The position numbers and the translations under genes are program-made. The notes beneath the pieces are model-generated. The model did not search any database and was not told where the DNA came from. It saw only the letters and a list, made by a program, of their open reading frames with translations. Shown here in pieces: positions 32,238 to 48,527 of a stretch of DNA of 64,000 nucleotides (within the stretch, counting starts at the first letter, position 1; each line of letters opens with the position of its first letter). Source of the DNA: a virus; IMG/VR virus record IMGVR_UViG_3300025451_000012, positions 9,671-73,670 of that record, one strand, 5' to 3'.

Positions 32238-32270
32238 TTATGTTTCCTGTTCTCTACTGTTTAAGATTCT

Positions 32271-32299
32271 ATTATATCACCGAAACCATTTAATGTCAA
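32271..32299 (-). promoter_or_regulatory. early promoter (- strand), consensus copy upstream of rIIA
   Basis: ATTATA-17-TGTCAA + conserved leader. Confidence 0.7.
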
Positions 32300-33445
32300 T
32301 TATTGGTAAGAAGCACTAGAATTGTAGGGCCCGATTCCAATTACGTTTCCCCGAGATTTAGGAATCAACCACGGAACCCAATTAACAGATTGGTCATCAA
32401 CTAGCAAAGTTGAAATTCCTGTAGAAAAATTATAAGCCTGTATTGCCATTCCTCGATACCAACCACCTACACTGGAGTTATCACTGGTTCGACTGACGTA
32501 CAACATAGCCACACTGTTAGTAGTAATGATAGTGAAGTCGTTGACTACACCGTGCCCGGGAAGCGGTGGGATTACAGTTGTAGTGTTACCAAAAATGCCA
32601 TTTCCATCACCGTACCACACCTTAGTAGGACTTGATGTCGCTCCATTCTGATCCCAGTCATTACCGCTTGCAATGATATCAATAACTCCGTCATTATTTA
32701 AATCGACTAACTCAACATTGAAGTAGCCCGTAGTTGTATTATCATTGATTCCGGTTGGTTGCTTGACGAAGGTACCATTACGTTGGTTTATAAAAATAGC
32801 TAATGTGCCGCCAGCAGCACGAACTAAATCGGGATACACATCACCGTTTATATCCGCAGCCGATACACCGTGATTGAATTCTGCGTCTAGTACATCGCTT
32901 AGTACGTAGTTACCTCGTCCATTGCTGAGTAAGAGTTTACTTTTTTCTCCGGGGAAAGGAACATCGTCATAGCCATGACATGCAACTAGTACATCCGGGA
33001 TATCATCTTTGTTAAAATCTGCAACAATCGCTTTGCGTGGATGCAAACACCCCTTGACGCTTGACACCTTAGTAAGTGTTTTATCCGAATTTATAGTCCA
33101 AAAAGTGAAGTCACTTAGGTATTTCACATCACTGGTTACAGTTGAAAAGCTATCGTGCTGCGTTGTATAATTTTGATTAGCAGTGAATACCCCAAGTTCA
33201 CCTTGCTTGTTGAACTCACCAAACCCATATGCTACAGGAACCCAACCAGACAATCCGTAATTGCTTGTAGGGAATGTAATCGTATCTATAGGATAAGATT
33301 TAAAATTCTTGTATGAGGTATCATAGAGCGATCCAGCTATGGCAGGCGCTGTTACAGTCACCGGTACGACTGGATTGGTACCTCCGCCTCCCCCGCATGC
33401 GGACAATAGAAGTGAAATTAGGATGACTGGTAAAGTATGTTTCAT
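32300..33445 (-). CDS. lipoprotein with FG-GAP (integrin-alpha-like beta-propeller) repeats
   Basis: lipobox LLSAC + G-rich linker; repeated DxNxDGxxD-like motifs (ADFNKDDIPDVLVA, ADINGDVYPDLV, VDLNNDGVIDIIA). Confidence 0.6.
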   Translation of the reverse strand: MKHTLPVILISLLLSACGGGGGTNPVVPVTVTAPAIAGSLYDTSYKNFKSYPIDTITFPTSNYGLSGWVPVAYGFGEFNKQGELGVFTANQNYTTQHDSFSTVTSDVKYLSDFTFWTINSDKTLTKVSSVKGCLHPRKAIVADFNKDDIPDVLVACHGYDDVPFPGEKSKLLLSNGRGNYVLSDVLDAEFNHGVSAADINGDVYPDLVRAAGGTLAIFINQRNGTFVKQPTGINDNTTTGYFNVELVDLNNDGVIDIIASGNDWDQNGATSSPTKVWYGDGNGIFGNTTTVIPPLPGHGVVNDFTIITTNSVAMLYVSRTSDNSSVGGWYRGMAIQAYNFSTGISTLLVDDQSVNWVPWLIPKSRGNVIGIGPYNSSASYQ

Positions 33446-33451
33446 ACAGCT

Positions 33452-33480
33452 ATTATATCACCAAACCTAGTTAAAGTCAA
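33452..33480 (-). promoter_or_regulatory. early promoter (TTGACT-17-TATAAT, - strand)
   Basis: sequence. Confidence 0.55.
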
Positions 33481-33505
33481 CCTCAGAATTTTTGTTCTCA
33501 TAGAA

Positions 33506-33546
33506 GCAAAAAGCCCCAAAAATGGCACTTTTCAGGGCTGTTTGTT
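33506..33546. terminator. intrinsic terminator (AGCCCCAAAA...TTTTCAGGGCT imperfect long hairpin with flanking A/T runs) downstream of clpP
   Basis: sequence. Confidence 0.5.
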
Positions 33547-33559
33547 CTTATGAGAGCAA

Positions 33560-34150
33560 TTAAATTCGTTTAGTCAGAATGCTATCAATGAGTCCGTAAT
33601 CTAGTGCAGCTTTTGCACTCATGAAATTGTCACGTTCCATGTCAGCACTGAACTGGTCGAATGTTTTACCGGTACTGTTGTGGTCAACATAGATTTGGGT
33701 CAGCACTTTCTTCATAGCCAAAATCTCAGTAACCTGAATCAGCATGTCAGTTGCTTGACCGCGACTACCGCCCGATGGTTGATGGATCATGTGACGTGCG
33801 TTTGGCAACATCATGCGCTTACCTTTAGCACCTGATGTTGCAAGCAAGCTGCCCATTGAACAGGCTTGACCCATAACGATTGTTTGTACATCGGGCTTGA
33901 TAAACTGCATTGCATCATAGATAGCCATACCCGCAGTCACTGATCCACCCGGACTATTAATGTACATTGAAATGTCTTTGCCACTGTCTTCACTTTCCAA
34001 GAACAATAGCTGGGCAACAATCAGATTTGCCATTTGATCATGCACTTCGCCTTCGAGCAAAATGACTCGGTCACGCAACAAACGACTATAAATGTCATAA
34101 CTGCGCTCACCCTTGCTGGTTGTTTCGATTACGATTGGAACTAAACTCAT
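33560..34150 (-). CDS. clpP: ATP-dependent Clp protease proteolytic subunit
   Basis: catalytic Ser motif [10 protein letters not shown], His in MIHQPSGG; overall ClpP collinearity. Confidence 0.9.
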
Positions 34151-34236
34151 TTTTTTTGCCTTTGTTAAAAATAATTTGCGATAAATACAATATGTGTGAT
34201 AGAATCATCACTTCACTAACTTTATAGAGATTATAC

Positions 34237-35454
34237 ATGAGACATTACGAATTTGCAACAACTCTGGTAGAAGCCGTTGACCCATTAGCAGCTCCAGTTG
34301 TAGCTCCTCAACCGACGACTACACCCGTAGTGAAAGCTAAGCCAGTAGCAAAAACGGTGACCAAGCCAGAAGCTAAGCCAGTTGTCAAAGCACTAGTTAA
34401 GCCTACTAAGGGCGTAGACCCAACTGAGATTAAGGCTGTGACTAAACCCGAAGTAGAAGCAGTTCTACGAGCAGGTGGATACGAGGATTTCAAGATTAAC
34501 GGTAACAAAATCAATGTTATCGTACAGATTCCAGATGGTGCTAAGAAGAATGAGTACCGAGTTGCGATTATGAAAGAAGTTATCGCATTGCTCAAGGCTG
34601 AATTTGACGAGGCAGTGCAATATGTTAACGATCCTGGATTGAGTAGTCTAGGTGGCGCAGTATTTGACAACAGCCCTGTATGCGTAGTTATCAAGGATGC
34701 GGGTAAGCAAGCTGAAAAATCAGCCGGAATGAGCAATGAGCTTGAACTAGCTAGTACGATCCAGTCAGTAATTGAGAAATATGGCATGGCTAATGTCACT
34801 TTCAAAGACAAACGTGGCAAGAAAATGACTATCAAGAACGCAACCGAAGCAGAAATGACCGGTAAAGAAACATCTGGCGGTAGAAAAGCAGATATTGTGT
34901 TGCGTAGTGCAAGAGGTGTTCTTCCAATCAGCATTAAAGAACTTAGCGCAGACTTTTGGGAGAGTTCAGACACAGCTTTCGGGGCCAGAGCTAAGGAAAT
35001 CCTTCAAAAACTGCAAGACGAAGGTATTGTCAAACTAACTCAAATTGCAGAACGTACTAACAAGCGTACAGGTGAGAAAACCCCAGTTTGGAAGCTAAAC
35101 AAAGAAATTGTCATGGAACCTACTACACAAGAAGCTATGAATGCTATCTTTGGTAGTGACTTGAATCCAAGAGGTGGAATTGTTATCCAAGACTTCGGTC
35201 CTGAACACTTTACACAAAAAGGAAACAACATTGAAGTTGCTTGTCATGCAGTTATTACTAACAAGGATGAGATTCCAGAGAGTCATTTGATGGTTTGGCA
35301 GATCAGAAATGATAGCACACGTATGAATCCTCTTCCAGGATTGCGTACTCTTGCTGCTACACTAACACGCGGTATCGGTAAGAAGGGTACTAAGGATGTT
35401 ATTCTAGTGGATCAATATGGTAACGTAGTGAAGAATCCAAACATCACGTCTTAA
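34237..35454 (+). CDS. hypothetical protein with N-terminal Pro/Lys/Ala/Val-rich (KPxxK) low-complexity tail and globular C-terminal domain
   Basis: ORF track; PVVKAKPVAKTVTKPEAKPVVKALVKPTKG repeats. Confidence 0.55.
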   Translation: MRHYEFATTLVEAVDPLAAPVVAPQPTTTPVVKAKPVAKTVTKPEAKPVVKALVKPTKGVDPTEIKAVTKPEVEAVLRAGGYEDFKINGNKINVIVQIPDGAKKNEYRVAIMKEVIALLKAEFDEAVQYVNDPGLSSLGGAVFDNSPVCVVIKDAGKQAEKSAGMSNELELASTIQSVIEKYGMANVTFKDKRGKKMTIKNATEAEMTGKETSGGRKADIVLRSARGVLPISIKELSADFWESSDTAFGARAKEILQKLQDEGIVKLTQIAERTNKRTGEKTPVWKLNKEIVMEPTTQEAMNAIFGSDLNPRGGIVIQDFGPEHFTQKGNNIEVACHAVITNKDEIPESHLMVWQIRNDSTRMNPLPGLRTLAATLTRGIGKKGTKDVILVDQYGNVVKNPNITS

Positions 35455-35953
35455 ATAAGTCCTGATATTTAAACCACTTGCGCATTCTATGCGCAGTCTT
35501 TAGGGGAATGTTATGTTCCCCTAACCTATTTCTGAACGTAAAGAAGCTAGGGCCGTGACTCATTAACCAGTCTTTGCCCTGTCTTGCTCTTGCAGGCCCG
35601 TTTATATCCCATTGATGCTGATGAGCCATTTCGTGAGCTAGAATAGTCACAAACCACTGTCTACAGTGCCATTTATCCATCAACTCTATCTCACAATAGC
35701 TACCAGTCTTGTGCTGTTCTATGGATCCTATACACATTCCCCAGTATTTTTGTCTTCTAGCAGCTATATCAAGTGTTGGCATTAGTAATTCGCCGGCAAA
35801 AACCTGCTTATTAAGCAGGTTATATGTATACTTGGCTTCAGCTAGTGTAGGACGAAACATTAGTCTCCTTTGATATGTTATCGGCGGCAAAGGAGTATCC
35901 ATCAGTTCTTTGAGAGTTAGACTTTCGTAGTACATACAACTATTTAGTACCAA
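35444..35953 (-). CDS. SprT-like / zincin metallopeptidase (HExxH)
   Basis: ILAHEMAHQHQW zinc-binding motif. Confidence 0.5.
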   Translation of the reverse strand: MVLNSCMYYESLTLKELMDTPLPPITYQRRLMFRPTLAEAKYTYNLLNKQVFAGELLMPTLDIAARRQKYWGMCIGSIEQHKTGSYCEIELMDKWHCRQWFVTILAHEMAHQHQWDINGPARARQGKDWLMSHGPSFFTFRNRLGEHNIPLKTAHRMRKWFKYQDLFKT

Positions 35954-36010
35954 AAGTTTTTTTTCACGGTTCTAATCCTTTTCTAAATAGTAGTAGAAGG
36001 AGATTATAAC

Positions 36011-36301
36011 ATGTTCAAATCTATCAAAAAATTCTTTGGTTTCGGCGCTTCTGCTGCACCCGAAGTAGCAGTTCAGGAAGTAGTACCGTATAAGGTTGAA
36101 GTTGAGGCAGCACCCGTTGTCGTTGAAGCAGCTATTTCACCGGTGGCGCCAGTTGCTCCCGTAGTCAAAGCGCCAGCTAAACCTAGAGCACCCGCTAAGA
36201 AGGTTGCCGCTGGGCCAGCAGCTAAACCTAAAGCAGCAGCTAGAACCGTAGCTAAAAAGCCTGCAGCGGGCGCCGCAGCTAAAGCTAAAAGTGCAAAGTA
36301 A
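36011..36301 (+). CDS. histone H1-like / AlgP-like KPAA-repeat DNA-binding protein
   Basis: C-terminal PAKPRAPAKKVAAGPAAKPKAAARTVAKKPAAGAAAKAKSAK. Confidence 0.55.
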   Translation: MFKSIKKFFGFGASAAPEVAVQEVVPYKVEVEAAPVVVEAAISPVAPVAPVVKAPAKPRAPAKKVAAGPAAKPKAAARTVAKKPAAGAAAKAKSAK

Positions 36302-36325
36302 TTTGTTTTACTTGTACTAAAAGAA

Positions 36326-36345
36326 ATAGGACGCTAGCGTCCTAT
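36326..36345 (+). terminator. perfect 20-nt palindrome ATAGGACGCTAGCGTCCTAT downstream of H1-like gene (putative terminator or binding site; no strong U-run)
   Basis: sequence. Confidence 0.35.
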
Positions 36346-36363
36346 TCCCACATAAATACTTAT

Positions 36364-37059
36364 ATGAATTTTGGTTTTGATATCATAAGTGACTTACACT
36401 TAACACCCGACAGTCTTTTTGAATGGGACGACAAAGCAACAAGTTTGTATTGCATCATACCTGGTAATATAAGTGAGGATCTGACCGTAGTTAGAACAGT
36501 GCTTAAAACATTGTGTGAACACTATCAGGGAATCTTCTACATAGACGGCGCGCTTGAGAACTCTGGGATAAAAACTAGGCAGTTCACCCATAAAGAAATT
36601 AAAAAAATATGCAAACCCATGAGCAAGGTCGTGTATCTACATGACAACGTGGTTGTTATTGAAGGTGTTGCATTGATTGGGATCAATGGTTGGTATGGAA
36701 ATTATGTTCCCGAAGATGCAGCAGCAGAAGTTGAATTGATTGTTGCGGGGTATGAAGACTTTTCATACTTAGATAGTACGATTGACAAGTTACAGCTTCA
36801 CTTGGATGTGAAGAAAATTGTCATTATTTCAAATAGTGTTCCGTTAACTAAACTATTTTACGGAGAGATTCCTAAAATGTACGGTGACACCTCTCCAGAA
36901 GAATCATTAGAGAATGATACGGCGAATAAAGTTTCACATTGGGTATTCGGCTCTACCCAAAAAATAATTGATACTACTTTTGATAGTATCAATTATATAA
37001 ATAACCCCTGTTATAATAGAAGTCCGTACTATGCTAAACGCATAGAAGTAGAGATTTAA
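36364..37059 (+). CDS. putative metallophosphoesterase-like protein
   Basis: N-terminal FGFDIISDLHLTPD resembles motif I of calcineurin-like phosphoesterases; other motifs degenerate. Confidence 0.4.
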   Translation: MNFGFDIISDLHLTPDSLFEWDDKATSLYCIIPGNISEDLTVVRTVLKTLCEHYQGIFYIDGALENSGIKTRQFTHKEIKKICKPMSKVVYLHDNVVVIEGVALIGINGWYGNYVPEDAAAEVELIVAGYEDFSYLDSTIDKLQLHLDVKKIVIISNSVPLTKLFYGEIPKMYGDTSPEESLENDTANKVSHWVFGSTQKIIDTTFDSINYINNPCYNRSPYYAKRIEVEI

Positions 37060-37367
37060 GACGCAGCTTCAATCTTAACTTGTAGCGGGTAGCCTTCTGT
37101 ACGTGCTTCCATAGTTACTTCAATGCCTTTTTGTTCGGCAATTTCATACGGCAACACTGCAACTACTGCACTACCGGATTCATGAATGCCAGTAGTGATA
37201 CCAACTGCGGTGTCACTTGTATAATGAAAATGATCCACTAAAGTACGAATAACAAACTCCATACTAGTCAATTCATCATTGATATAGATTACCTTGAACA
37301 GCGGTGGCTCAGGGATATCAATGATGGGTTTAATGCTAACGACTGAATCAATTTGTGTTTGTGCCAT
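37056..37367 (-). CDS. clpS: ATP-dependent Clp protease adaptor ClpS
   Basis: FKVIYINDELTSMEFVIRTLVDHF... matches ClpS core (VxLxNDDxTxMEFV). Confidence 0.8.
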   Translation of the reverse strand: MAQTQIDSVVSIKPIIDIPEPPLFKVIYINDELTSMEFVIRTLVDHFHYTSDTAVGITTGIHESGSAVVAVLPYEIAEQKGIEVTMEARTEGYPLQVKIEAAS

Positions 37368-37396
37368 TTTTTTCTTTCATTGTGTGTGCAGTGTCT

Positions 37397-37426
37397 ATTA
37401 TATTACGTATTGTATTTAATAGCAAT
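37397..37426 (-). promoter_or_regulatory. T4-middle-promoter-like element (MotA-box-like aTTGCTAtTA, ~14 nt, TATAAT) upstream of clpS
   Basis: rc of plus 37397..37426; speculative. Confidence 0.25.
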
Positions 37427-37852
37427 ACTCTTTGGCTTCATTTCTTCAGGAAGTTTTCGTTCTAGGTGAAGAGTTAAGATACCGTTAGCATTTTCTGCAT
37501 CTTTGACTTCTACGTGTTCAGCGAGAGTAAACTCACGCACAAAATTCCTATTACTAATACCATGGTGTAGATACTCTTTAGGTTCATCAAAGTTCATGTG
37601 CTTCGTTCCGGTGATGACTAACACCCTATTTTCAATTTGGATATCAATTTCCCCTTCAGTAAACCCAGCAACTGCTAGTTCAATATCAAAGTCATTTTCA
37701 GAACGTTTAACAATGTTATAGGGAGGGTAGTTTGTAGTTGTCTGCCCTGCATTCATTCGCATCAGTTCATCTAACACTGATTCAAACCCAATACCAAACT
37801 TATGAATTGATGGAATATCAATTGAACGTAGCGTTAGTGTTCCATTAGACAT
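37403..37852 (-). CDS. small heat-shock protein (Hsp20/alpha-crystallin, IbpA-like)
   Basis: [23 protein letters not shown]...[12 protein letters not shown] pattern of IbpA/IbpB. Confidence 0.85.
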
Positions 37853-39746
37853 TCTTACTCTCCTTCACTTCTGCATCAACTACGTTATCATCAACCGGTG
37901 CTTCAGTAGCAGATGATTGCTCTGCTGCCTCTGCATCCTGTTTCACCTTAGTAATTGGTCCAATTGCTTCGTACAGTTTGGGAATAGCTTCTTGGATAAC
38001 AGATACGTCTTCACCCTTAACTGCTTCTTCCAATGCTTTGATAGCGTCTTCCGCTAGTGTTTTCTCTTCGGCAGTTACTTTGTCACCATACTTGTCAAAG
38101 TCTTCCTTGAATGTACGTAGTGTACCTTCTGCACTGTTACGTGCTTCAATTAACTCACGTGCCTTCTTATCAGATTCTGCATTAAGTTCAGCGTCTTTAA
38201 CCATTGCTTGAATTTCAGCTTCGGTCAATCCACTATTAGCTTTGATAGTGATCTTATTTTCTTTGCCAGTGTTCTTATCTTTAGCACTTACACTCAAGAT
38301 ACCGTTAGCATCGATGTCCAATGTAACTTCAATCTGAGGCATACCGCGTCTTGCTGGAACAATACCTTCAAGATTGAACTCACCCAATAGTTTATTGAAC
38401 TGTGCTAGCTCACGTTCACCTTGAAATGCTTTGATAGTAACTGCAGGTTGATTATCTTCCGCTGTACTGAATGTTTGACTAGCTTTAGTAGGAATAGTTG
38501 TGTTCTTTTGAATCAACTTACTCATTACACCGCCCATAGTCTCGATACCAAGACTTAGTGGAGTCACATCAAGCAACAATACGTCTTTACGTCCACCACC
38601 TAGCACATCACCTTGAATAGCTGCGCCTGCTGCTACTGCTTCGTCTGGGTTAACATCTTTACGAGGTGCCTTGCCGAAGAATTTCTCAACTGCTTCAACA
38701 ACTTTAGGCATACGTGTCATACCACCGACGAGGATAACCTCGTCAATGTCTGCGTTAGTAACGCCTGCATCTTTCATAGCAATCTTGCATGGCTCAATGC
38801 TACGTAGGATCAATTCTTCAACTAGACTTTCTAGTTTAGAACGATTGATTGTAATGTTCAAATGCTTTGGACCACTTGCATCCGCAGTAACGTAAGGCAA
38901 GTTAACACTAGTGCTTGCAGAACTAGACAATTCAATCTTAGCTTTTTCTGCCGCTTCTTTCAAACGTTGCAATGCAAGCATATCCTTTTTCAAGTCAATG
39001 CCCTGTTCTTGTTTGAATGTATCAACCAAGAAATCCATAATGCGTTGGTCAAAGTCTTCACCACCTAAGAATGTATCACCATTCGTAGACAATACTTCAA
39101 ACTGTTTATCACCATCAACGTCTGCAATTTCAATGATAGATACGTCAAACGTACCACCACCCAAGTCATAGACTGCAATCTTGCGGTCTTTCTTGTCTTG
39201 CTTGTCAACACCGTACGCAAGTGCTGCCGCAGTTGGTTCATTGATAATACGCAACACTTCTAATCCAGCAATACGACCTGCATCCTTAGTTGCTTGACGT
39301 TGACTATCATTAAAGTATGCTGGCACTGTGATAACTGCTTGAGTTACTTCGTGACCAAGATAATCTTCTGCGGTCTTCTTCATCTTACGCAAGACTTCGG
39401 CAGAGATTTGCGGGGGCGCTAGCTTATCTTCGTTGACTTGAACCCAAGCATCACCATTCTCATTCTTGATAATAGTGTATGGCATCAAGTCAATGTCTTT
39501 TTGTACAGCTTGTTCATCAAACTTACGTCCGATCAATCGCTTGCTAGCATAAATTGTGTTTTTGGGGTTTGTAACTGCTTGACGTTTAGCACTTGCACCT
39601 ACCAAGATTTCACCGTTAGCATATGCTACGATACTTGGCGTGGTTCTAGTACCTTCGCTGTTTTCAATTATTTTGGGGATTCCGTTTTCGATGACGGCTA
39701 CGCATGAATTTGTGGTACCTAAGTCGATACCGATGACTTTGCTCAT
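37845..39746 (-). CDS. dnaK: molecular chaperone DnaK (Hsp70)
   Basis: 633 aa; [22 protein letters not shown], full-length Hsp70 collinearity. Confidence 0.95.
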
Positions 39747-39805
39747 TTTTTTCTCCTTTAGAAAGCAAGATTTTTGTGATAGACCCCGAAGGCATCTACT
39801 ATAAT

Positions 39806-39833
39806 ATATATTGCACCCTCTTGTGCAATATAT
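39806..39833. repeat. 11-bp perfect inverted repeat ATATATTGCAC-cctctt-GTGCAATATAT in dnaK 5' leader / clpX 3' flank
   Basis: sequence. Confidence 0.6.
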
Positions 39834-39840
39834 GCGACTA

Positions 39841-41049
39841 TTAAATGATAGGAGCCGGGTTTATTACCCGTTCTTTATCAATTAACAGAATTGTTATGTT
39901 GTTTTTCTTATACAACCTAGTGTGAAACATGTGGCACATAAGCACACGTTCAATTTCTGTATGTAAGCCTCTAGCACCAGTCTTCAATAGCAGTGTGTTT
40001 TCTGCCATCTGTTCTAAAGCATCAGTAGTAAATGATAGCTGGATGTTGTCCAAACTTAACAAATACTTATACTGACTAATGTAGTTGTTCTTAACATCAG
40101 TGAGAATATGTACCAATTGCTCTTTATTCAATTCACCAATGCTTACTGTTGTAGTGAAACGTCCGATAAACTCAGGAATCATTCCATATCTAGTTAAATC
40201 ATCAGGACTAACCTTTGTTAGTTCACCTTCAACTTTGCTATCACTGATAGAAGCATGAAACCCAATGCTAGTGCCATTCATACGAGTGGCAATAACATCT
40301 TTCAATCCAACAAAGGCTCCACCTGCGATAAAGAGAATGTCTTTGGTGTTAATTTCTGACATTTCACCACCCGGATGCTTACGTCCACCTTGTGCAGGGA
40401 TACGACAAGTCGTACCTTCTACTAATTTGAGTAGTGCTTGCTGTACACCTTCGCCCGATACGTCACGTGTGATACTAGCACTTTCACCTTTGCGGGCGAT
40501 CTTGTCAATTTCATCAATAAAGATGATACCACGCTCTGCAAGTTTAACATCGCCATCGGCTGCATTGATAAGCATATTAATCATGCTCTCAACGTCATCA
40601 CCTACATAACCTGCTTCGGTCAAACTAGTCGCATCTGCTACGACAAAGGGCACTTTGAGATATTTCGCTGCTGTCTTAGCTAATAGAGTTTTACCACTAC
40701 CAGTAGGACCTACAATGAGAACATTACCCTTTTGAATTTCAATATCTTTTGGTGGATTGTTGATTCGTTTATAATGATTAGCAATAGCTACGCTAAGAAC
40801 CATCTTGGCTTCGTCTTGTCCAATAACATGTTTATCCAAATACTCTTTAATAGCTTCTGGATCATGTACTGGCTCAGGAGGTTCTGCTACACTAACCGAA
40901 GATTCATCTTCAATTAATGTTTGGCATAGATCAACACAGTCATTGCAAATAGCAATGCCCTCACCGACGATTAGTTTCTTTACAGCGTCTTTACTGTTGC
41001 CACAAAAGTTGCAATGGTCTATTAAATTATGGTCTTCGTTCATATTCAT
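39841..41049 (-). CDS. clpX: ATP-dependent Clp protease ATP-binding subunit ClpX
   Basis: N-terminal C4 zinc finger CNFCGN...CNDCVDLC; Walker [14 protein letters not shown]; ClpX collinearity. Confidence 0.9.
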
Positions 41050-41056
41050 ATACTTA

Positions 41057-42013
41057 TCATTCCCTAAACGGTTTTGTACTATTTGAACAAGTAGTTACTG
41101 CTGATAATTCTACTCGTGCCGCATTTGACAATGCTGTGGTCATTTCGGCGTCAATTTCAATTTGAATGACTGATTTTATAACTTCTCTGGAATCCACTAC
41201 ATAAGTAGAGGACGAATACGAACCAGAAAACACAGGTGGAATCATGAAACAGCGAGTAGCGATTGCCTGATCACTTCTATTAATCATAACTGCTTGAAGT
41301 TGCAACCCACCATTCATTTGTTGTTTAATCAGTGCATACTTACCATAGTCATTGAACTTATAGGAGCTGTGCCCTACAACTATACTACTAGGTGCATTGT
41401 ACGATCCATCCGAAAGCAATTTCAACGACTCATGCAATGATACTAAAAATGGTTTGCTCCAACGCATCTCAAATGGGATTACCAATACTGCGTTTCGTTG
41501 GGTGTTCAGTTTAAATTCATGAGCACCTTGTGTAATGTTAAATGCTCGGGCAGGATAGTCATTCAACACAGCACTTAGAAAATTATCACCACTTTTTCTT
41601 TCGGTGAGATAACTGAGATACTGATTTGAAAGTCTAGCCCCATCTAATTCTTTTTCATCCTTACCCTTATTAAGGATTCGTTCATGAATTTTACTAGACT
41701 TAACTACCACTTGCATAATAACTACGACACTATCTGGTTTAATAATAGTATCAATGATAGTAAAGGTATCAATGTAACCAGCGCTGTAGTCAACTATATC
41801 TTCTTTAACCAGTTTATTATTGGTAAGCTGATTTTCACTCAATAGTGCTGACCCCACTTTCATAGAGATAGCATTTTTGAAACCATTACGTTTTGCTTCA
41901 TCAACGGTTTTACCAATACCCATTACTTGGATATAGCCAGGATCGTTTTTGTCAACAGGTTGACTATGTGCTACTCCTACAAAAAGAAGTAGCACAATAA
42001 GCCAGCGTATCAT
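41057..42013 (-). CDS. secreted protein, LPP20/LpoB-like fold (signal peptide)
   Basis: N-terminal hydrophobic leader; GIGKTVDEAKRNGFKNAI segment. Confidence 0.45.
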   Translation of the reverse strand: MIRWLIVLLLFVGVAHSQPVDKNDPGYIQVMGIGKTVDEAKRNGFKNAISMKVGSALLSENQLTNNKLVKEDIVDYSAGYIDTFTIIDTIIKPDSVVVIMQVVVKSSKIHERILNKGKDEKELDGARLSNQYLSYLTERKSGDNFLSAVLNDYPARAFNITQGAHEFKLNTQRNAVLVIPFEMRWSKPFLVSLHESLKLLSDGSYNAPSSIVVGHSSYKFNDYGKYALIKQQMNGGLQLQAVMINRSDQAIATRCFMIPPVFSGSYSSSTYVVDSREVIKSVIQIEIDAEMTTALSNAARVELSAVTTCSNSTKPFRE

Positions 42014-42666
42014 TTAAATTTCTTGCTGAAATAGTTAGAAGCCGATTCGCTATCCTTGTCCCAACGAATAGTCACTGCGACTGTTTGACGGTCAACGATA
42101 GATTCATCCTGAACTTGGATACCTTTAAGGATACCAGCAGCCTGTGTGCGAATGCTTTCAGTTACAGTACGAACGGTGTCATTTGAGTTTTCACGAATTG
42201 CAAAGTTTGTGTCTTTTGCCGCATCCTCATCAGACATTGCAACTTCTTCGTCAGACTTGATTCGGTTCTTGATCCTGTCATTTGCTTTTTCAACGTTCTT
42301 GGTCATAACGTTTTGGACACTTGAGCTGTACACGTCTTCACTAATGAAATGACGCAGTTTAGCCTTAGCTTTCATTTCAGCGACTTTGAACGCAGCTTCG
42401 CGGTTGTTTTCACTGTTGCCATTGCTAGTCGCATACGCAGTAACTTCAATCGCTTTGATATCACCTTTGATGCAGGTAGATTCCAACATGCCTGTACCCC
42501 AAGCACAGTCCCACTCAATTTTAACACCCTTGCGTTTAAAATTCGTAGACAACTTTTGGGCATTGATAGCAGTGATTTGACCACCTTCAATACTAGGTGC
42601 CTGTTTAGTGGTTGAACATGCAGTAAGAGCAAGTAATAGTGCCAGTGTGGAAAGTTTTGTAAACAC
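42010..42666 (-). CDS. lipoprotein (LPP20-like); apparent GTG start
   Basis: lipobox LTAC; start codon is GTG with GAAGGA SD 7 nt upstream. Confidence 0.55.
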   Translation of the reverse strand: MFTKLSTLALLLALTACSTTKQAPSIEGGQITAINAQKLSTNFKRKGVKIEWDCAWGTGMLESTCIKGDIKAIEVTAYATSNGNSENNREAAFKVAEMKAKAKLRHFISEDVYSSSVQNVMTKNVEKANDRIKNRIKSDEEVAMSDEDAAKDTNFAIRENSNDTVRTVTESIRTQAAGILKGIQVQDESIVDRQTVAVTIRWDKDSESASNYFSKKFK

Positions 42667-42693
42667 GAGAATCCTTCAAGGAAGTTATAAGAT

Positions 42694-42729
42694 GTAGACA
42701 GTATAACTCAACATGGATATACTGTCTAC
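42694..42729. repeat. 12-bp perfect inverted repeat GTAGACAGTATA-N12-TATACTGTCTAC overlapping a weak promoter-like TTGAGT-16-TATAAC for the lipoprotein operon
   Basis: sequence. Confidence 0.6.
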
Positions 42730-42737
42730 TATTTCGG

Positions 42738-44270
42738 TCAATTGACTTTGATGTGATTAGTAATTGCTTCCTGCTCATAGTCAGTTAGCAACTCAGGATC
42801 ATATTCACCTGTACTAATCTTTTCCATTAAATGATGCAAATAAGCAACGTTGCCCAAATATGCGCCAGTAGCTTGTTTGTTTATTTCAATCCACTTGCTA
42901 CCATTGTTCTTGTATACAACGTGCGGCATAGTGTCAATTTTGATAAAAGTGTCACCCATCTTGGCTGCACTAGGCAATGAACTACCAAACCCAATTTCAA
43001 TTTCTCTTGGATTGTCTTCTTTTAAGTTGAACAAGTCTGGACGCAGTGACTGCAACACCCGCTTGCTCATTTTCTTACCTTCAAACTCAACATAGCCGTC
43101 ACCAACATCTTTGAATGATGAACTAGTCTTAGGTTCAAATACTGGACCAGTCTGAATCCATTCTTTAGTTACAGGATCTTTGATTCCTTCAAATGAAGCG
43201 AACTGTGGGATAGCAACTATTTCGGTATCCACAGTGTCCGCCATTTGTTCTTCGATAGATAATTCTGGTACCAAAAGTTCGACTGTAGTTGATTCTATTT
43301 TACTGAACGCTTCGTCTTCCTCAACGGTTGGTTCAATGACTAATATTTCTGCTATCGGTTCTTCTTCAACGGGTTTTTTTACTTCTTCTATAATAGGTTC
43401 TTCAACTATTTCAGGAAAATCTGTTTTGTATCCATCTTCAAAAACCTCATCGTCATCATCCCGGTATTCATTTACTGGAACTTCAATCTTAGGTTCTTCT
43501 TCGAGGTCCCATTCTTTACTTGCATTAGCTGCCAGTACTAGTGCAATAGCAAGTGGATCGAACACGACAACAAGCAAGATGATAACCCATCGTACTGCGG
43601 CTTCTAGCATGTTTGCATCAGCATTGTCACCGTAAATCAATGCAGCAATATACTTGATCGGACCTACTTCTGCTTCAATTTTTCGTAACTCACTTGCAAG
43701 AGGTGCTCGTTGCTCATTCAGTGATTGAATCTCTTTATTAGATGCTTCAATACTTTTTAGAATCTTTGCACGTTCAGGTGCTTGTTGCTTACGAATGGCG
43801 ACGCTTCGTTCTACGCTTCGTTCACTGTCGCCTTTGCTCATGATATCATTAACCTGAGTATCCATCTGAGCCAACATAGCACGGTCACTCTTGATATTCT
43901 CACGTTGGATACTGATCTTCTCGTCAAACAATGCTACCTTAGAGCCTGCATCACCTGATGTAATGCCTTGCTCCATGTGTGCTTTACTCAAGAATCCAAA
44001 GATGCCCATTGAGGTAAGTAGTGCAAGTGCAATGACTGCGGGCACTAGATAAAGTTTCAACATCCAGCCTGCACGTTTCCAATACTTACGCAGCCATACT
44101 GTCGTGGTGATCTTTCCTACTTCAAGAATAGACCCCATGATGATAACAGGAACGACCGCACCTGCAAAGATAGCGGTTAGTCCAATGATACTGTAATATG
44201 CTGCTACTGAACTAAGTGAGAGTGCCACTAATAGTGTAAGCTGGCTGAATGTGAATATTTTCTTTAACAT
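42738..44270 (-). CDS. membrane protein with N-terminal TM helices, long coiled-coil, acidic Glu/Pro/Ile-rich linker and C-terminal globular domain (start refined to MLKKIF)
   Basis: ORF track 42738..44330. Confidence 0.55.
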   Translation of the reverse strand: MLKKIFTFSQLTLLVALSLSSVAAYYSIIGLTAIFAGAVVPVIIMGSILEVGKITTTVWLRKYWKRAGWMLKLYLVPAVIALALLTSMGIFGFLSKAHMEQGITSGDAGSKVALFDEKISIQRENIKSDRAMLAQMDTQVNDIMSKGDSERSVERSVAIRKQQAPERAKILKSIEASNKEIQSLNEQRAPLASELRKIEAEVGPIKYIAALIYGDNADANMLEAAVRWVIILLVVVFDPLAIALVLAANASKEWDLEEEPKIEVPVNEYRDDDDEVFEDGYKTDFPEIVEEPIIEEVKKPVEEEPIAEILVIEPTVEEDEAFSKIESTTVELLVPELSIEEQMADTVDTEIVAIPQFASFEGIKDPVTKEWIQTGPVFEPKTSSSFKDVGDGYVEFEGKKMSKRVLQSLRPDLFNLKEDNPREIEIGFGSSLPSAAKMGDTFIKIDTMPHVVYKNNGSKWIEINKQATGAYLGNVAYLHHLMEKISTGEYDPELLTDYEQEAITNHIKVN

Positions 44271-44277
44271 AGTATAT

Positions 44278-44481
44278 TTATTCTTCTGGTTCACCGAACA
44301 AGTGTTTGTAGTGATCCATAAATTCTCCATACTTCATAACTAGTTTTCTGGGCAAGCTAGAACCCATACTAATGTAGTAGTGAACCCAAGGACCATCTTC
44401 ACGCTGTTTAATTTGCGCTACTTCAATCCTTGCACCGTCCGGAAAAACATGTGACATTCCTGTTAAGTCTTTCATTACCAT
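44278..44481 (-). CDS. hypothetical protein
   Basis: ORF track. Confidence 0.45.
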   Translation of the reverse strand: MVMKDLTGMSHVFPDGARIEVAQIKQREDGPWVHYYISMGSSLPRKLVMKYGEFMDHYKHLFGEPEE

Positions 44482-44783
44482 AACCTCAATGTTTTCATAA
44501 TTTCTGGCCAGTCTTCTTTCTTACGTGGAGCAAACACAATGCCCACTTCGTCATTGTCAAGTCTGCTTTCGGTGATAACTTTGCAGTGTTCAACCTTCTT
44601 CAACTCGGCAAATTCTTCGTCGCTTACCTGACAGGTAACTTTCTTAAAACTGTCTTTAAGCCAATCTTGTGTTTCGGGCAAGTGTTGAAATTCTAACCAA
44701 CCAATCAAGCCGGCGTGTGCAGCAACATTAAGAGCGTGACCAGTTGGCACCCACTCTTTGATTGCGATATACATTTTCATCAT
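44475..44783 (-). CDS. hypothetical protein (weak resemblance to PTH2-type peptidyl-tRNA hydrolase)
   Basis: ORF track; weak motif resemblance only. Confidence 0.4.
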   Translation of the reverse strand: MMKMYIAIKEWVPTGHALNVAAHAGLIGWLEFQHLPETQDWLKDSFKKVTCQVSDEEFAELKKVEHCKVITESRLDNDEVGIVFAPRKKEDWPEIMKTLRLW

Positions 44784-45007
44784 TCAACTCCGAAATGTTT
44801 CTTCAATCGTTCTTGATAGATAACCTCGTCACCAAATTCTCTATCACTATCGTATGGGACCAATCTCAATGTCTCAATACATTCCCGAACAATCAACTCG
44901 GCGAACTTTTCCATACCTGCTGCACTAACCCATCGTCCACTCACATCAGTATATGCATTTGCTGTGTCGGCTAGTTCTTTAAATTTATTATTCATCCTGA
45001 GCTTCAT
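44780..45007 (-). CDS. small-protein paralog family member C
   Basis: EKFAELIVRECIETL ... KKHFGVE; shared 22-nt DNA core with members A and B. Confidence 0.5.
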   Translation of the reverse strand: MKLRMNNKFKELADTANAYTDVSGRWVSAAGMEKFAELIVRECIETLRLVPYDSDREFGDEVIYQERLKKHFGVE

Positions 45008-45266
45008 ATGTTACTTCGTATCCACCTTTACGGTCAGTCCACCAATCATCTTCATCCATCCAGTCCCAATCAAGATAGACTTTTGCATCATTACTATCTT
45101 CAATAAGTTGCTGATAATCGTAGTCACCATCTGTGATTTCTTCCATCACGTTAGCGATTTCTTCATCATCCATATCAGGATAAATTTCTCGCACAGTGTC
45201 TTCATTGACTTCCATGCTATATCGTTTTTCAACTTGATGCCATTCGCTTTTTACAATTTGTACCAT
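44988..45266 (-). CDS. hypothetical highly acidic Trp/Asp-rich protein
   Basis: ORF track. Confidence 0.5.
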   Translation of the reverse strand: MVQIVKSEWHQVEKRYSMEVNEDTVREIYPDMDDEEIANVMEEITDGDYDYQQLIEDSNDAKVYLDWDWMDEDDWWTDRKGGYEVTYEAQDE

Positions 45267-45274
45267 ATCATTCC

Positions 45275-45532
45275 TTAAAGTTCTATTAGCTTCTTAATGT
45301 CTTTTGGTTTTACAATTATAACATTGTGAATCACATCTTGATACTTAATTGGGAGATCCAAGTGAATAGTTACTCTTGGACCTTCGACTTCGTTAACAAC
45401 AGAATCGTTGCCGACCGATCCGATAAAGGGGATTTTATTCCACTTACCGGACACCCGGTCACCGATCTGCCATTTACCGATATATCTGTTTGCTGCAAAG
45501 TATTCTGCAAGACTAGCCATTACAATCTCCAA
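45275..45532 (-). CDS. hypothetical protein
   Basis: ORF track. Confidence 0.5.
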   Translation of the reverse strand: MEIVMASLAEYFAANRYIGKWQIGDRVSGKWNKIPFIGSVGNDSVVNEVEGPRVTIHLDLPIKYQDVIHNVIIVKPKDIKKLIEL

Positions 45533-45714
45533 AAAGTTTTAACGCCGACCCAATGAGCTAGAGGAGGGATCCATAAAGGTAAACCTAGTACAAGACAATA
45601 TGCAAACTGTATGTACTCAATAGGACTAAATTTATAGAACCAAATATTAATGATGCCAGCGATAGAATAAACTATACTGACATATACCAACCACCATCCT
45701 GGACTAATTTTCAT
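45520..45714 (-). CDS. hypothetical small membrane protein
   Basis: ORF track; two TM segments. Confidence 0.45.
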   Translation of the reverse strand: MKISPGWWLVYVSIVYSIAGIINIWFYKFSPIEYIQFAYCLVLGLPLWIPPLAHWVGVKTFWRL

Positions 45715-45770
45715 TTTATTTCCTTATCGAAACGGACTTATTGACATTGCCGTTACGCACACTGCAGGGG

Positions 45771-46568
45771 TTATTTAGGCATCATCAATGCATTGAAGTT
45801 ACTTGGAACAACAATAGTCTGGACCTTGCCGTTCTTGATGCCTTCGGAGATGTTCAACATAGCTTGTGCTTGCATGAATGCAATTGAACTGCCACTGTTA
45901 TTAGCCAATGCTGCCATACGACGGCTTTCAGCTTCGGCAGTCTTAACTTCAACTTCCTTTTGCTTCAATTCGTTCTTACTACGAACCAATGCATTGGCAC
46001 TTTCAACAACGGTGTCGCTAGGCACAACATTACGAATCATTACTTGGCTGATAGTGATTGCACCGTCCAGCTTTTCTTCAGCCATGTTACGCACGATCTC
46101 GTCCTGAATGAACTTTTCCATTTCATTGCGCTTGTCAGCCATGTCCAATGCTTCGTGCTTACGTGCTGCCTTGTAGATAGCATTACGAGCAGTTTGCACA
46201 ATGTAGTTGTACATCACGTAAGTATCACCTTTGAACTCTGCGTGGAAACTCTTGTTCTTAGTTGAATACAATTCTGACACCTGCGATGGATTGATGTTGT
46301 AAACAACCACAGCATCAAAGTCCTTCATTGTGGAGTTGTCAGCAGCCACAGGAGTCATATTCTCCAGGGTGACATTAACGTCCTTGATAGGGAATGTCAG
46401 TACATCACCGATAAAAGTTTGATTGAAAGATCCAGGCAATAGTTCACCACTTTGGACCTGTTTGTCAAAGCCGACACGCACGCCAACCTCGCCAGTTTCA
46501 ATACGAGTACAACCTGTTGCCAAAACAGCAGCAGCCAAAATAGAGAGAGTCAAAATACGTTTCATCAT
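45771..46568 (-). CDS. SPFH/band-7 (prohibitin/stomatin-like) lipoprotein
   Basis: lipobox LATGC; SPFH-like core plus C-terminal coiled coil. Confidence 0.55.
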   Translation of the reverse strand: MMKRILTLSILAAAVLATGCTRIETGEVGVRVGFDKQVQSGELLPGSFNQTFIGDVLTFPIKDVNVTLENMTPVAADNSTMKDFDAVVVYNINPSQVSELYSTKNKSFHAEFKGDTYVMYNYIVQTARNAIYKAARKHEALDMADKRNEMEKFIQDEIVRNMAEEKLDGAITISQVMIRNVVPSDTVVESANALVRSKNELKQKEVEVKTAEAESRRMAALANNSGSSIAFMQAQAMLNISEGIKNGKVQTIVVPSNFNALMMPK

Positions 46569-46574
46569 GTTTCC

Positions 46575-46751
46575 TTAAAATAAAATTACTAAACCAACTA
46601 ACACTATCAGTGATAGTATTGAACACATTATAGCATAGGTTATTGATTTTGTCAAGCCCCATACTTCTTTTCCTGACAATGTTCTGACCCAAGATATACC
46701 AAATCCAAATACAACTGTCAATATCACAAATGCTAAAAATACTTTAATCAT
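46575..46751 (-). CDS. small membrane protein ORF (58 aa) not in track; contains the SPFH-gene promoter
   Basis: own translation MIKVFLAFVILTVVFGFGISWVRTLSGKEVWGLTKSITYAIMCSILSLIVLVGLVILF; ATGA overlap with ligase stop. Confidence 0.3.
   Translation of the reverse strand: MIKVFLAFVILTVVFGFGISWVRTLSGKEVWGLTKSITYAIMCSILSLIVLVGLVILF
46627..46655 (-). promoter_or_regulatory. early promoter (TTGACA-17-TATAAT, - strand)
   Basis: perfect consensus hexamers. Confidence 0.65.
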
Positions 46752-48109
46752 CATACTACCTGTTGTTTGTCATCACGAAACCGAACAAATCGGGGGAATC
46801 GTAGAGAATACGTTCCATCTTGATTTTGTGTAATCACGTCACACATGACCTCAGCGGTGCGACCAATAACGATAGCAGAGTCAGTCCAATAACTATCTCT
46901 ATCACCATCACTAAACCCACTACCAACATTGACAGTGATTTCCTTTCCGTCGTCCACTCCGGAGCAGACCAGTGCTCCAAGTCGACCTTCATTGCGTCCA
47001 GTACCTTCTTCAACACCTACGACCTCCAAGTCTACAGTAATAGTGGGTTTCCACTTCATCCAGTCAGTTGACCGTTTGCACAAATATGGAGCATCCATGT
47101 TCTTAATCATAATACCTTCGAACCCTGCGTTCACGTTGTCTTTAGCATAACGCTCAAGTTGATCCTTACCTGCGGCAGTGTCGAGGTCAACCATGATGTG
47201 AGGAAGTAGTTCAACATTGTCCATTGTATCAATCACAGGACGAATTGCATCAAGTAGTGCAATACGCTTAGTCAACTGAGCATTCCAATGACCTCGACGG
47301 AAGTCTTCAAGCGGGATAATGTCAAAAATATTGAGTACTGAATCGTCGGCTTGTGCGTCAGTTTTGCGGCGTGCTTGGCGCATGAGTTCTTGGAATGTAT
47401 TACCGATCACTTCACCATCAAGTACGAAACCATTAATGAGGCTGCGACCTTGATCTACGTTTGTACATGCACGAACTAGCTTAGTCCAACTGTTGGCAAT
47501 CTGGTCTTCAATGTGAGTAAAGTTTTCAAACACTTTACCATTGCGACTGAAACAGATAATCGTCACATCACCGTCACTAGGGATAACAGTGAACAATGCA
47601 CGAACACCATCCAACTTAGGCTCAAGTCGTTTCATGCCCTTCATTTCAGGACGACCTTCACTGTTAGTTGCAAGCTGGCAACCAAAGATTGGGATTTCGT
47701 ATTCTGTCTTTTTACAGATTTTGTTGATAGTAGTTGACGAGATACCTGCACGAAGGTCCCGACGCAACACTGCGGCACAGAATGTATTCCATTCTTCACT
47801 GTCAAAGCGTTCTGCCATTTCTTGAATAGCATCACGTGCAGCGTGACCAGTCAATTGGCGCTGTGATAGCTGAACCAATAGTTCATTGAAGTCACTCCAG
47901 GGATTTTCTGAATCAATTAGACCGACTGTATCAGGAACTTTCTTAACACCAAATGTTACGTAGGGATTGTAACATGCCTTAGCGAGTCCCAGAAATGCTT
48001 GCGAGTTGATGCTGCCCAGAATAGCAGCTTCCAATGCTTGCCTTACTACATCTTCTTTGTGAAGGCGACTGTCTGATTCGTTAAGTTTGTTGATCCAAGA
48101 TGCTGACAT
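46751..48109 (-). CDS. ATP-dependent DNA ligase (T4 gp30-like)
   Basis: adenylation motif I KLDGVRAL; nucleotidyltransferase + OB domain length/collinearity. Confidence 0.85.
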   Translation of the reverse strand: MSASWINKLNESDSRLHKEDVVRQALEAAILGSINSQAFLGLAKACYNPYVTFGVKKVPDTVGLIDSENPWSDFNELLVQLSQRQLTGHAARDAIQEMAERFDSEEWNTFCAAVLRRDLRAGISSTTINKICKKTEYEIPIFGCQLATNSEGRPEMKGMKRLEPKLDGVRALFTVIPSDGDVTIICFSRNGKVFENFTHIEDQIANSWTKLVRACTNVDQGRSLINGFVLDGEVIGNTFQELMRQARRKTDAQADDSVLNIFDIIPLEDFRRGHWNAQLTKRIALLDAIRPVIDTMDNVELLPHIMVDLDTAAGKDQLERYAKDNVNAGFEGIMIKNMDAPYLCKRSTDWMKWKPTITVDLEVVGVEEGTGRNEGRLGALVCSGVDDGKEITVNVGSGFSDGDRDSYWTDSAIVIGRTAEVMCDVITQNQDGTYSLRFPRFVRFRDDKQQVV

Positions 48110-48139
48110 TTTTACTCCGTTGTCTGATTTAAGCTACAA

Positions 48140-48168
48140 GTATAACACAGGTATGATTTATTGTCAAG
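48140..48168 (-). promoter_or_regulatory. early promoter (TTGACA-17-TTATAC, - strand)
   Basis: sequence. Confidence 0.5.
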
Positions 48169-48526: not shown

Positions 48527-48527
48527 A

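Follow-up and report, generated by a model that had tools for sequence, protein, structure and literature searches.

A conserved chaperone and protease gene block with a ROSE-like dnaK leader in uncultured freshwater jumbo phages

Introduction

The 64,000-nucleotide stretch of viral DNA analysed here (positions 9,671 to 73,670 of the IMG/VR record IMGVR_UViG_3300025451_000012, hereafter the window) encodes the ClpX unfoldase, a full-length DnaK, an IbpA-like Hsp20, the N-degron adaptor ClpS, a SprT-like protease and the ClpP peptidase in one 13-kb block. Why does a phage hold such a set of genes, were they picked up piecemeal from its hosts, and with which partners would they work? An original prediction, made from the sequence letters alone, had named these families, assigned the phage to the T4-like type and taken the alternating strands of the genes as a sign of mosaic acquisition. 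Our comparisons point to another answer. In our view, the block is probably a module for protein quality control that a large lineage of uncultured jumbo phages from freshwater has conserved and inherited vertically. In addition, a conserved RNA leader that resembles the ROSE thermometers of bacteria was found in front of dnaK.

Results

The chaperone and protease genes are a conserved unit

The genes were called from a listing of the open reading frames (ORFs) and from profile searches with Pfam and NCBIfam. The searches bore out the family assignments of ClpP, ClpS, Hsp20, DnaK, ClpX and the SprT-like protein (Table 1). On the minus strand the order is clpX, a structured leader, dnaK, hsp20 and clpS, with the SprT-like gene and clpP further downstream and a distance of about 5.7 kb between clpP and clpX. 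Downstream of clpP, a gene for an FG-GAP lipoprotein and then rIIA and rIIB follow on the same strand, which agrees with the predicted position of the block next to rIIA. The alternation of strands is also real, as three plus-strand genes are interspersed between clpS and clpP. The convergent pairs overlap 3' to 3', the gene of a 405-amino-acid (aa) protein with the SprT-like gene at 35444-35454 and the gene of a 231-aa protein with clpS at 37056-37059. Since both overlaps leave no space for terminators, the transcripts of the two strands must overlap.

DnaK relatives are encoded on at least 594 IMG/VR stretches. The best 80 of these were sampled, and the counts per locus given here refer to them. 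DnaK, Hsp20 and ClpS are adjacent in 71 of the 80 loci, ClpX lies directly upstream of dnaK in 23, and all six of ClpX, DnaK, Hsp20, ClpS, SprT and ClpP are present in 17. The 231-aa gene runs opposite to the others in 23 of 23 cases. The DnaKs of these 80 relatives are 76-85% identical to the window DnaK; when phages and bacteria were compared, the phage DnaKs gave 77-85% and the bacterial DnaKs 68-75% identity to it. The other block proteins of the relatives are 31-92% identical to those of the window. The G+C content is flat across the window, and the phage dnaK has a value of 0.42, which is the phage's own, against a bacterial median of 0.60.

The ancestry of DnaK was analysed with a neighbour-joining tree (50 bootstraps) of 83 phage DnaKs and bacterial DnaKs. 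The phage sequences were monophyletic in 50 of the 50 bootstraps. Their sister group consists of 48 sequences, largely of Comamonadaceae, Limnohabitans, Polynucleobacter, Paraburkholderia and Oxalobacteraceae. The best 80 bacterial DnaKs from 185,579 species genomes belong almost all to Burkholderiales or other Betaproteobacteria and are 66-79% identical over the best-matching segment.

Because the block is conserved in diverged relatives and the G+C content is flat, we conclude from the sequence comparison that it is old and vertically inherited in the lineage, its mixed orientation included. The predicted mosaic acquisition is therefore not supported: the block with its opposite-strand genes is a conserved core of the lineage, an outcome that the original prediction had itself named as refuting, and the phylogeny of DnaK, which the original prediction had proposed as a check, gives one phage clade with phage-like G+C beside Burkholderiales. 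A recent piecemeal uptake from hosts would explain the mixed orientation, and the cellular homologues of the block genes, the three genes on the opposite strand and the presence of the ClpX-ClpP extension in only a subset of the loci would fit it. However, the order and orientation are the same in relatives whose proteins have diverged to 31-92% identity, the DnaKs form one clade with the composition of the phage, no recent donor of ClpX is apparent and the window is uniform in G+C, so that this origin is very unlikely and largely refuted. The identity of 68-75% to Burkholderiales DnaK might also be thought to come from host contamination or a chimeric assembly, with a bacterial DnaK region joined to a phage contig. 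This is refuted, its probability being practically nil, since independent JGI metagenome contigs encode the exact window DnaK protein next to the same neighbours, rIIA and rIIB among them, the arrangement is common to 80 viral contigs, and the composition and the separate clade set the phage genes apart. Moreover, grpE and dnaJ were not found at the viral loci, in contrast to 75-77 of the 80 bacterial loci.

The window belongs to a jumbo phage

The block DNA was searched against 50,697 deposited phage records, and no nucleotide match was found among them. For rIIA, the best identity to any deposited phage is 37%. The relatives are on IMG/VR contigs of 245-524 kb, and contigs that carry the genes from the ends of the window stop near the window ends. 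Since the relatives reach contig sizes of up to 524 kb, the phage of the window is a jumbo phage of an uncultured freshwater lineage and not, as had been proposed, a typical T4-like phage. The statement that the chaperone genes are outside the T4 core is supported.

One relative on a 353-kb contig (L070) encodes a permuted tmRNA of the betaproteobacterial type at 325-763 on the plus strand, with 102 bits against a cut-off of 84. Its tag peptide is ANADTFDFSAMSFTGNTVSGKSKVALAA, ending in ALAA. A C-terminal LAA is the classic ClpX degron, so that this tmRNA connects to ClpXP, and it also hints at the host. Because of the DnaK ancestry and the tmRNA type in this relative, the hosts are probably Burkholderiales. 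In this way, the tree and the tmRNA suggest a freshwater Burkholderiales host for phages without a cultured member. In a further relative (L011, 32-8954), dnaK is located within an array of 17 tRNA genes, without Hsp20 and ClpS neighbours.

A ROSE-like leader precedes dnaK and, in relatives, hsp20

Between clpX and dnaK are 94 nucleotides (nt), taken up by an inverted repeat of 11 bp and then by a leader, which nearly all relatives have conserved. The leader forms two hairpins. Hairpin I carries GAU[G]CC..GGGUC at its top and is followed by UCUUGCUU, 4-8 nt, AAGGAGA, about 6 nt and the AUG. In hairpin II, CUU[G]CUU, which contains the ROSE motif UUGCU, pairs with the AAGGAG of the ribosome-binding site (RBS) around a bulged G. 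This pairing was observed in 102 distinct leaders with 97.6% of the cells paired, and UCGCU variants occur.

A covariance model was built from 40 dnaK leaders. It scored 65.8 bits on the window leader and found no other site in the window. In the 80 viral loci, 123 sites were found, nearly all of them immediately before dnaK or hsp20, with one leader on each of the two genes in most loci. When the 80 bacterial dnaK loci were searched, zero sites were found. Hairpin I shows compensatory changes at 6 of its 8 pairs; none of 500 shuffles reached the observed covariation score, and controls with a shifted register scored far lower. Folding of single sequences gave the same two hairpins with the bulged G over the RBS in 6 of the 7 relatives' leaders tested. 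For hairpin II alone, an energy of -5.3 kcal/mol at 10 C and of -1.4 kcal/mol at 37 C was predicted. The Rfam model ROSE_3 (RF02523) aligns in the same register, with 32.2 bits (E 0.0099) for the hsp20 leader of the relative L015, 29.1 bits for L075 and 19.1 bits for the window.

At the gathering thresholds of Rfam, the whole window gave zero matches. A weak full-length match to the motif freshwater-2 (RF02980) was seen at 39744-39828 on the minus strand, with 23.3 bits against a cut-off of 49.9, a threshold reached by no locus examined. This orphan motif may belong to the leaders of such phages. In two relatives, a third copy of the leader was observed (L075, 10285-10640; L031, 18709-19092) before a gene for a phasin-like protein of about 97 aa. 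The gene is directly upstream of SprT and ClpP in these relatives and absent from the window, and the third leader hints at a co-regulation of the module.

The inverted repeat before the leader has the sequence ATATATTGCAC-N6-GTGCAATATAT, and the relatives have a different inverted repeat in the same place. A CIRCE-like operator was considered for it and rejected, the repeat being unique in the window and of the wrong spacing. In the literature searched, of which the coverage is incomplete, no paper on this lineage, on the conserved block or on a phage ROSE-like element was found.

ClpX, ClpP and ClpS

ClpX scored 515 bits with the equivalog model NF003745 (TIGR00382; cut-off 359), and its zinc domain matched zf-C4_ClpX with an E-value of 4.7e-13. 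Alignment to the PDB entry 6sfw showed that the C4 zinc finger, the Walker motifs, the GYVG pore loop, the RKH loop and the IGF loop for the docking of ClpP are kept. The protein should therefore be a competent unfoldase by its sequence. Its identity is about 50% to Proteobacteria, Firmicutes and other jumbo-phage sequences among the matches in the phage collection, and since it is the same for all matched groups, a recent donor is not apparent.

For ClpP, the NCBIfam subfamily NF001368 gave 310 bits (cut-off 249), whereas TIGR00493 remained narrowly below its cut-off with 300.5 against 308.6 bits. The motifs of the Ser-His-Asp triad including ERD are present and a propeptide is lacking. A role as a prohead protease in phage head maturation is not supported: the respective model NF045542 gave 99.4 bits against a cut-off of 120, and clpP is surrounded by ClpX, DnaK, rII and metabolic genes. 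Judged from these profiles, ClpP is of the canonical cellular type and not a prohead protease.

ClpS matched Pfam PF02617 with 80.8 bits (cut-off 23) and was below the cut-off in all seven NCBIfam equivalogs, the best of which gave 65 against 149 bits. In the N-degron pocket, the window copy has kept N34, D35, T38, M40 and H66, and D36 is a glutamate; E79, E82 and K84, the contacts to the ClpA N-domain, are kept as well. Among 62 distinct phage copies, N34, D35, T38, H66, E79 and E82 do not vary, K84 is found in 57 and M40 in 48. ClpS docks on the N-domain of ClpA and is the adaptor of ClpA. Since it serves ClpA and not ClpX, and the ClpA-contact residues are kept in the phage copies, the prediction of a ClpXP protease with ClpS as its adaptor was wrong. 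We assume that the ClpA of the host is the simplest partner of the phage ClpS.

DnaK, Hsp20 and their co-chaperones

The full-length DnaK scored 975 bits with the equivalog NF001413 (cut-off 648) and 896 bits with TIGR02350 (cut-off 822.55). The ATPase residues D8, K70, E171, D194, T199 and D201, the linker residues L390, L391 and D393 and, in the substrate cleft, F426, A429 and V436 are identical in the window copy, as are nearly all of the substrate-cleft residues examined. In the 83 phage copies, these residues are invariant apart from F426, which is a tyrosine in 2 of them, and the catalytic, linker and contact residues checked are invariant or vary as in bacteria. The residues R167, N170, T173, G32, K55 and R56, which contact the J-domain or GrpE, are kept. 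From its sequence, DnaK thus appears to have its catalytic and co-chaperone contact residues intact. Six positions are fixed differently between phages and bacteria, the sharpest being K166L (98% of the phage and 0% of the bacterial copies) and F216I (92% and 0%; E. coli numbering). They adjoin R167 and E217, which we take to be J-domain contacts in E. coli DnaK.

DnaJ and GrpE were looked for throughout the 64-kb window and, at 82 related viral loci, up to 10 kb from dnaK; neither was found, in agreement with what the original prediction had said for the block. In bacteria, dnaJ is beside dnaK in 75 of 80 loci and grpE in 77 of 80, whereas the count is 0 of 82 at the viral loci. A query with the Limnohabitans DnaJ matched only 2 IMG/VR stretches, and among the matches listed for a J-domain profile, none of the 80 contigs carried the phage dnaK. 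A dependence on the host co-chaperones, which had also been proposed, is a reasonable inference from the lack of these genes nearby, with K166L and F216I as a lead in the other direction.

Hsp20 has the alpha-crystallin domain (Pfam HSP20, 66 bits against 20.8) and a C-terminal I-x-I motif, IAI. Its best NCBIfam match is IbpA, the equivalog NF008013 being below the cut-off with 117 against 212 bits. The start of hsp20 overlaps the stop of dnaK by 8 nt, and the end of dnaK contains the hsp20 RBS, AAGGAGA; this implies that the two genes are coupled in translation.

Early promoters are absent from the block

The early promoter motif is an extended sigma-70 sequence, TTGACA-N14-TG-N-TATAAT. It occurs 31 times in the window, where 1.4 are expected, often exactly as TTGACATTAAATGGTTTCGGTGATATAAT with the spacer conserved too, and it marks short early genes. 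The sites are located at 4623-8000 on the plus strand, at 19287-33480 on the minus strand and at 46627-63117, mostly on the minus strand. In the chaperone block, that is 33481-46626, none was found. The original prediction had set the block apart from the surrounding early region by its alternating strands. The contrast is real, but its cause is a different one, as the block is without any of the 31 early promoters.

At the head of the block is a promoter with the sequence TTGACA-N17-TATAAT and an upstream TG, and the SPFH gene is the first gene after it. The next early promoter downstream on the minus strand is at 33452-33480, past clpP. The strong terminator-like hairpin just 3' of clpP is likely the 3' end of the minus-strand transcription unit.

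In most relatives, hairpin I of both the dnaK and the hsp20 leader is preceded, at a distance of about 7 nt, by a box of ATAAATA or TATAAATA; the window's own dnaK leader is without this T4-late-like box. T4 late promoters were rejected, since TATAAATA is not enriched (2 in the window against 3.5 expected, 79 in the relatives against 83), and the box before the leaders is therefore a mere resemblance.

The neighbouring genes

The coordinates of the features are listed in Table 1. The SprT-like protein (PF10263) exceeds the gathering threshold of 25.6 bits marginally, and SprT-like matches were found in 22 related loci. Its start codon is uncertain, as the gene callers gave 138 and 163 aa.

The 96-aa protein on the plus strand had been described as a histone-H1-like KPAA protein. 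It has an N-terminal amphipathic helix (MFKSIKKFFGFG), a PYKVE motif and a basic Ala/Pro/Lys tail, and a counterpart is in the same place in 21 of the 21 relatives examined that have both flanking genes. The ORF is thus real and conserved. Since its counterparts have an N-terminal transmembrane or amphipathic helix before the basic low-complexity tail, "H1-like" describes the composition only.

Several phosphoesterases had been predicted in the block, where only a single such ORF was found, and this has a degenerate active site. The 231-aa protein gave zero Pfam matches at E <= 1. When it was aligned with 11 relatives, four of the five metal-binding motifs were seen to be lost (GDxxD, GNHE, H and GHxH), and only motif I (DxH: Asp10, His12) is kept. 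Two relatives of 33-34% identity keep all five motifs and match Metallophos (PF00149) with 3.9e-5. By this alignment, the protein descends from calcineurin-like phosphoesterases and is probably not catalytic, because only Asp10 and His12 survive. An intact metallophosphoesterase is encoded outside the block at 18893-19735.

The 405-aa gene has its own promoter-like and terminator-like sites. Its product contains an N-terminal Ala/Pro/Lys/Val-rich insert of about 60 residues (34237-34461, plus strand) that is found only in the window phage and in homologues of 86-100% identity and not in more distant relatives. The composition of the insert resembles the tail of the neighbouring 96-aa protein.

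The three envelope-type genes accompany clpX in the relatives, and in 60 of the 80, a match to the 530-aa membrane protein lies no more than 10 kb from dnaK. Several small ORFs are located between the gene of this membrane protein and the SPFH gene. Outside the block, auxiliary genes are abundant at 18893-28249 and 55054-63606. They encode NAMPT, an NMNAT-Nudix fusion, UvdE, an epimerase, an IscA-like Fe-S protein and dCMP deaminase, as well as PTPS (QueD-like), a QueE-like radical SAM protein, an AAA ATPase, a 5'-3' exonuclease and a dual-specificity phosphatase.

Table 1. Features of the chaperone block and its borders, in window coordinates
Feature	Position	Strand	Remarks
Terminator-like hairpin	33512..33539	-	11-pair stem and T run; just 3' of clpP
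ClpP peptidase	33560..34150	-	Pfam E 1e-79
405-aa protein	34237..35454	+	phrog_12709
SprT-like zinc metalloprotease	35444..35953	-	Pfam 27.4 bits; HEMAH
96-aa A/P/K-rich protein	36011..36301	+	
231-aa degenerate calcineurin-like phosphoesterase homologue	36364..37059	+	
ClpS N-degron adaptor	37056..37367	-	Pfam E 6e-23
IbpA-like Hsp20	37403..37852	-	Pfam E 3e-18
DnaK (Hsp70), full length	37845..39746	-	Pfam HSP70 E 7.7e-255
ROSE-like two-hairpin dnaK 5' leader	39744..39807	-	
Perfect 11-bp inverted repeat	39806..39833		between clpX stop and dnaK leader
ClpX unfoldase	39841..41049	-	equivalog NF003745
Envelope-type genes (318-aa secreted protein, 218-aa lipoprotein, 530-aa membrane protein)	41057..44330	-	
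SPFH/Band-7 lipoprotein	45771..46568	-	Pfam E 1e-18
Early-type promoter	46627..46655	-	perfect extended sigma-70

Discussion

In the module that we favour as the explanation, the phage ClpX and ClpP would form a phage ClpXP protease and the phage DnaK would work with the DnaJ and GrpE of the host. The phage ClpS would dock on the host ClpA and either steer N-degron substrates to ClpAP or block other ClpA substrates. Together with Hsp20, the set would hold, refold or degrade proteins in a long infection once the synthesis of the host chaperones stops. The leader would keep the translation of dnaK low until its hairpin opens, either by warming or when Hsp20 is titrated by protein aggregates, as is the case with E. 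coli IbpA. This protein represses translation by binding to its own mRNA of the ROSE type and is drawn off by protein aggregates (PMC10410725). By analogy, the IbpA-like protein and the ROSE-like leaders of the phage could work in the same manner. We put forward tentatively, as a possibility short of a conclusion, that the lineage runs its own stress-sensing chaperone circuit, with DnaK and the IbpA-like protein both made from ROSE-like leaders that open on warming or on titration of the small heat-shock protein. If this is true, the chaperone supply in the infected cell would be self-regulating and independent of the host sigma-32, and a ROSE-type element would be known for the first time from a virus and from the front of an Hsp70 gene.

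Several observations weigh against these readings. The pair counts are biased towards the modelled structure, as they come from an alignment that was fitted to the model. Since hairpin II is invariant, covariation speaks neither for nor against it, and part of its conservation could stem from the demands of the RBS itself. At 37 C, the leader of the window does not exceed shuffled sequence in stability (z = -0.9), and folds that include the coding start predict an alternative in which UUGCUU pairs with GAGCAA at the start codon. All scores with the ROSE models of Rfam are below the gathering cut-off of 43 bits. As to the partners, a ClpA- or ClpB-like gene was found neither in the window nor within 10 kb of dnaK in the relatives, and a query with E. 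coli ClpA gave only weak matches, all to ClpX. A J-protein, GrpE or ClpA may be encoded elsewhere in the phage genome. The changes K166L and F216I on the J-domain face could mark a rewired co-chaperone interface, and could mean an altered or phage-specific J partner instead of the plain host DnaJ.

The same proteins could serve counter-defence or host takeover rather than general proteostasis, with DnaK and Hsp20 titrating regulators such as sigma-32 or disarming chaperone-dependent defence systems, and ClpXP, ClpS and SprT destroying defence or nucleoid proteins of the host. The clade-specific DnaK changes beside presumed J-domain contacts and the location of the block in the rII and auxiliary-gene region, away from structural genes, would fit such a role. 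Iyer et al. interpret the ClpP, ClpS and SprT-like peptidases, which occur patchily in jumbo phages, as anti-host weapons (PMC7824862), and Perez-Hernandez et al. suggest that heat-shock proteins of phages act in counter-defence (PMC12619734). However, a target is not known, the cleft and the catalytic residues of DnaK are unchanged, as expected of a general chaperone, and a leader of the heat-shock type suggests regulation by folding stress. We consider this role unlikely, and it is compatible with a quality-control module rather than exclusive of it. Somewhat less likely again is a function as helpers of virion assembly, in which the chaperones would be expressed late and act on the large structural proteins of a jumbo phage and ClpP would take part in head maturation. 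The absence of early promoters from the block, the T4-late-like box ahead of the leaders in most relatives and the ClpP-like head-maturation proteases of many phages (PHROG matches) speak for it. Against it, no structural genes are nearby, the box is not enriched and is lacking at the window leader, and ClpP is of the cellular type (310 bits, against 99 of the required 120 with the prohead model) and is paired with ClpX.

Clp and chaperone gene families are already known from some jumbo phages and are not new alone. What is new is a large, apparently undescribed environmental lineage in which DnaK, a small heat-shock protein and ClpS stay together as a fixed unit, in many cases joined by ClpX and ClpP. 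The phage evidently needs the set, which is not a collection of stray host genes. Also new are the conserved ROSE-like leader of about 60 nt on a virus-encoded Hsp70 and the combination of ClpS without ClpA and of DnaK without DnaJ and GrpE, which imply mixed host-phage machines.

Comparison with known systems

Among jumbo phages, Iyer et al. list ClpP, ClpS, SprT-like peptidases, ClpA, ClpX, DnaJ and Hsp20 as sporadic genes, and they recorded the Hsp20 of the Agrobacterium phage Atu_ph07 (PMC7824862). This phage and other Rak2-like ("group 2.2") jumbo phages likewise have ClpX, ClpP, ClpS, Hsp20 and a SprT-like protein (PMC6102473, PMC7824862), and their ClpS has also been read as an adaptor of the host ClpAP. 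However, the Atu_ph07 genes have widely separated numbers (gp2, 292, 492, 676, 708), whereas those of the window form one block. Atu_ph07 adds ClpA, ClpB and DnaJ with no DnaK listed, and the window has DnaK with none of these three nearby. The window ClpX is 49% identical to gp2 of Atu_ph07 and equally distant from bacterial ClpX, which indicates no specific relationship.

The Moraphages (Perez-Hernandez et al. 2025, PMC12619734) are also uncultured freshwater jumbo phages with DnaK and Hsp20, and their DnaK too comes from the host lineage. There, DnaK is present in only 8 genomes, is nested in Flavobacteriaceae and was read as a recent transfer, and DnaJ is common. In the lineage of the window, DnaK is sister to Burkholderiales, has the phage composition and is found on the 594 or more IMG/VR stretches, with no DnaJ nearby. 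Neither a ClpX/ClpS/ClpP block nor an RNA leader is described in the Moraphages paper. Full-length phage Hsp70s of 48-57% identity are encoded by the huge phages LR756501-08 and the Lak phages (GenBank). In the four LR7565xx genomes examined, DnaK is alone, with none of Hsp20, ClpS, ClpX, ClpP, DnaJ and GrpE within 10 kb.

No bacterial ROSE element is known to control dnaK. Short two-hairpin ROSE-like thermometers, in which U(U/C)GCU pairs with the RBS around a bulged G, are known from ibpA (Krajewski et al. 2013, PMC3669281). Like the Pseudomonas ibpA element ROSE_3 (RF02523), the phage leader is about 60 nt long and has two hairpins, with the bulged G in GAU[G]CC...GGGUC of hairpin I and an imperfect pairing of U(U/C)GCU with the RBS in hairpin II, and in the relatives it precedes a small heat-shock gene. 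Unlike ROSE_3, it is encoded by a phage, is also found before dnaK, has a shorter hairpin II, is without a recognisable sigma-32 promoter upstream and reaches 19-32 bits with Rfam against 43.

When the block is compared with the bacterial grpE-dnaK-dnaJ, clpS-clpA and clpP-clpX operons, the proteins are orthologous and pass the curated thresholds for DnaK, ClpX and the ClpP subfamily. However, the partners grpE, dnaJ and clpA are missing at the phage block, and clpP and clpX are separated instead of adjacent. The dnaK-hsp20-clpS operon of the phages is an arrangement absent from the 80 bacterial loci examined.

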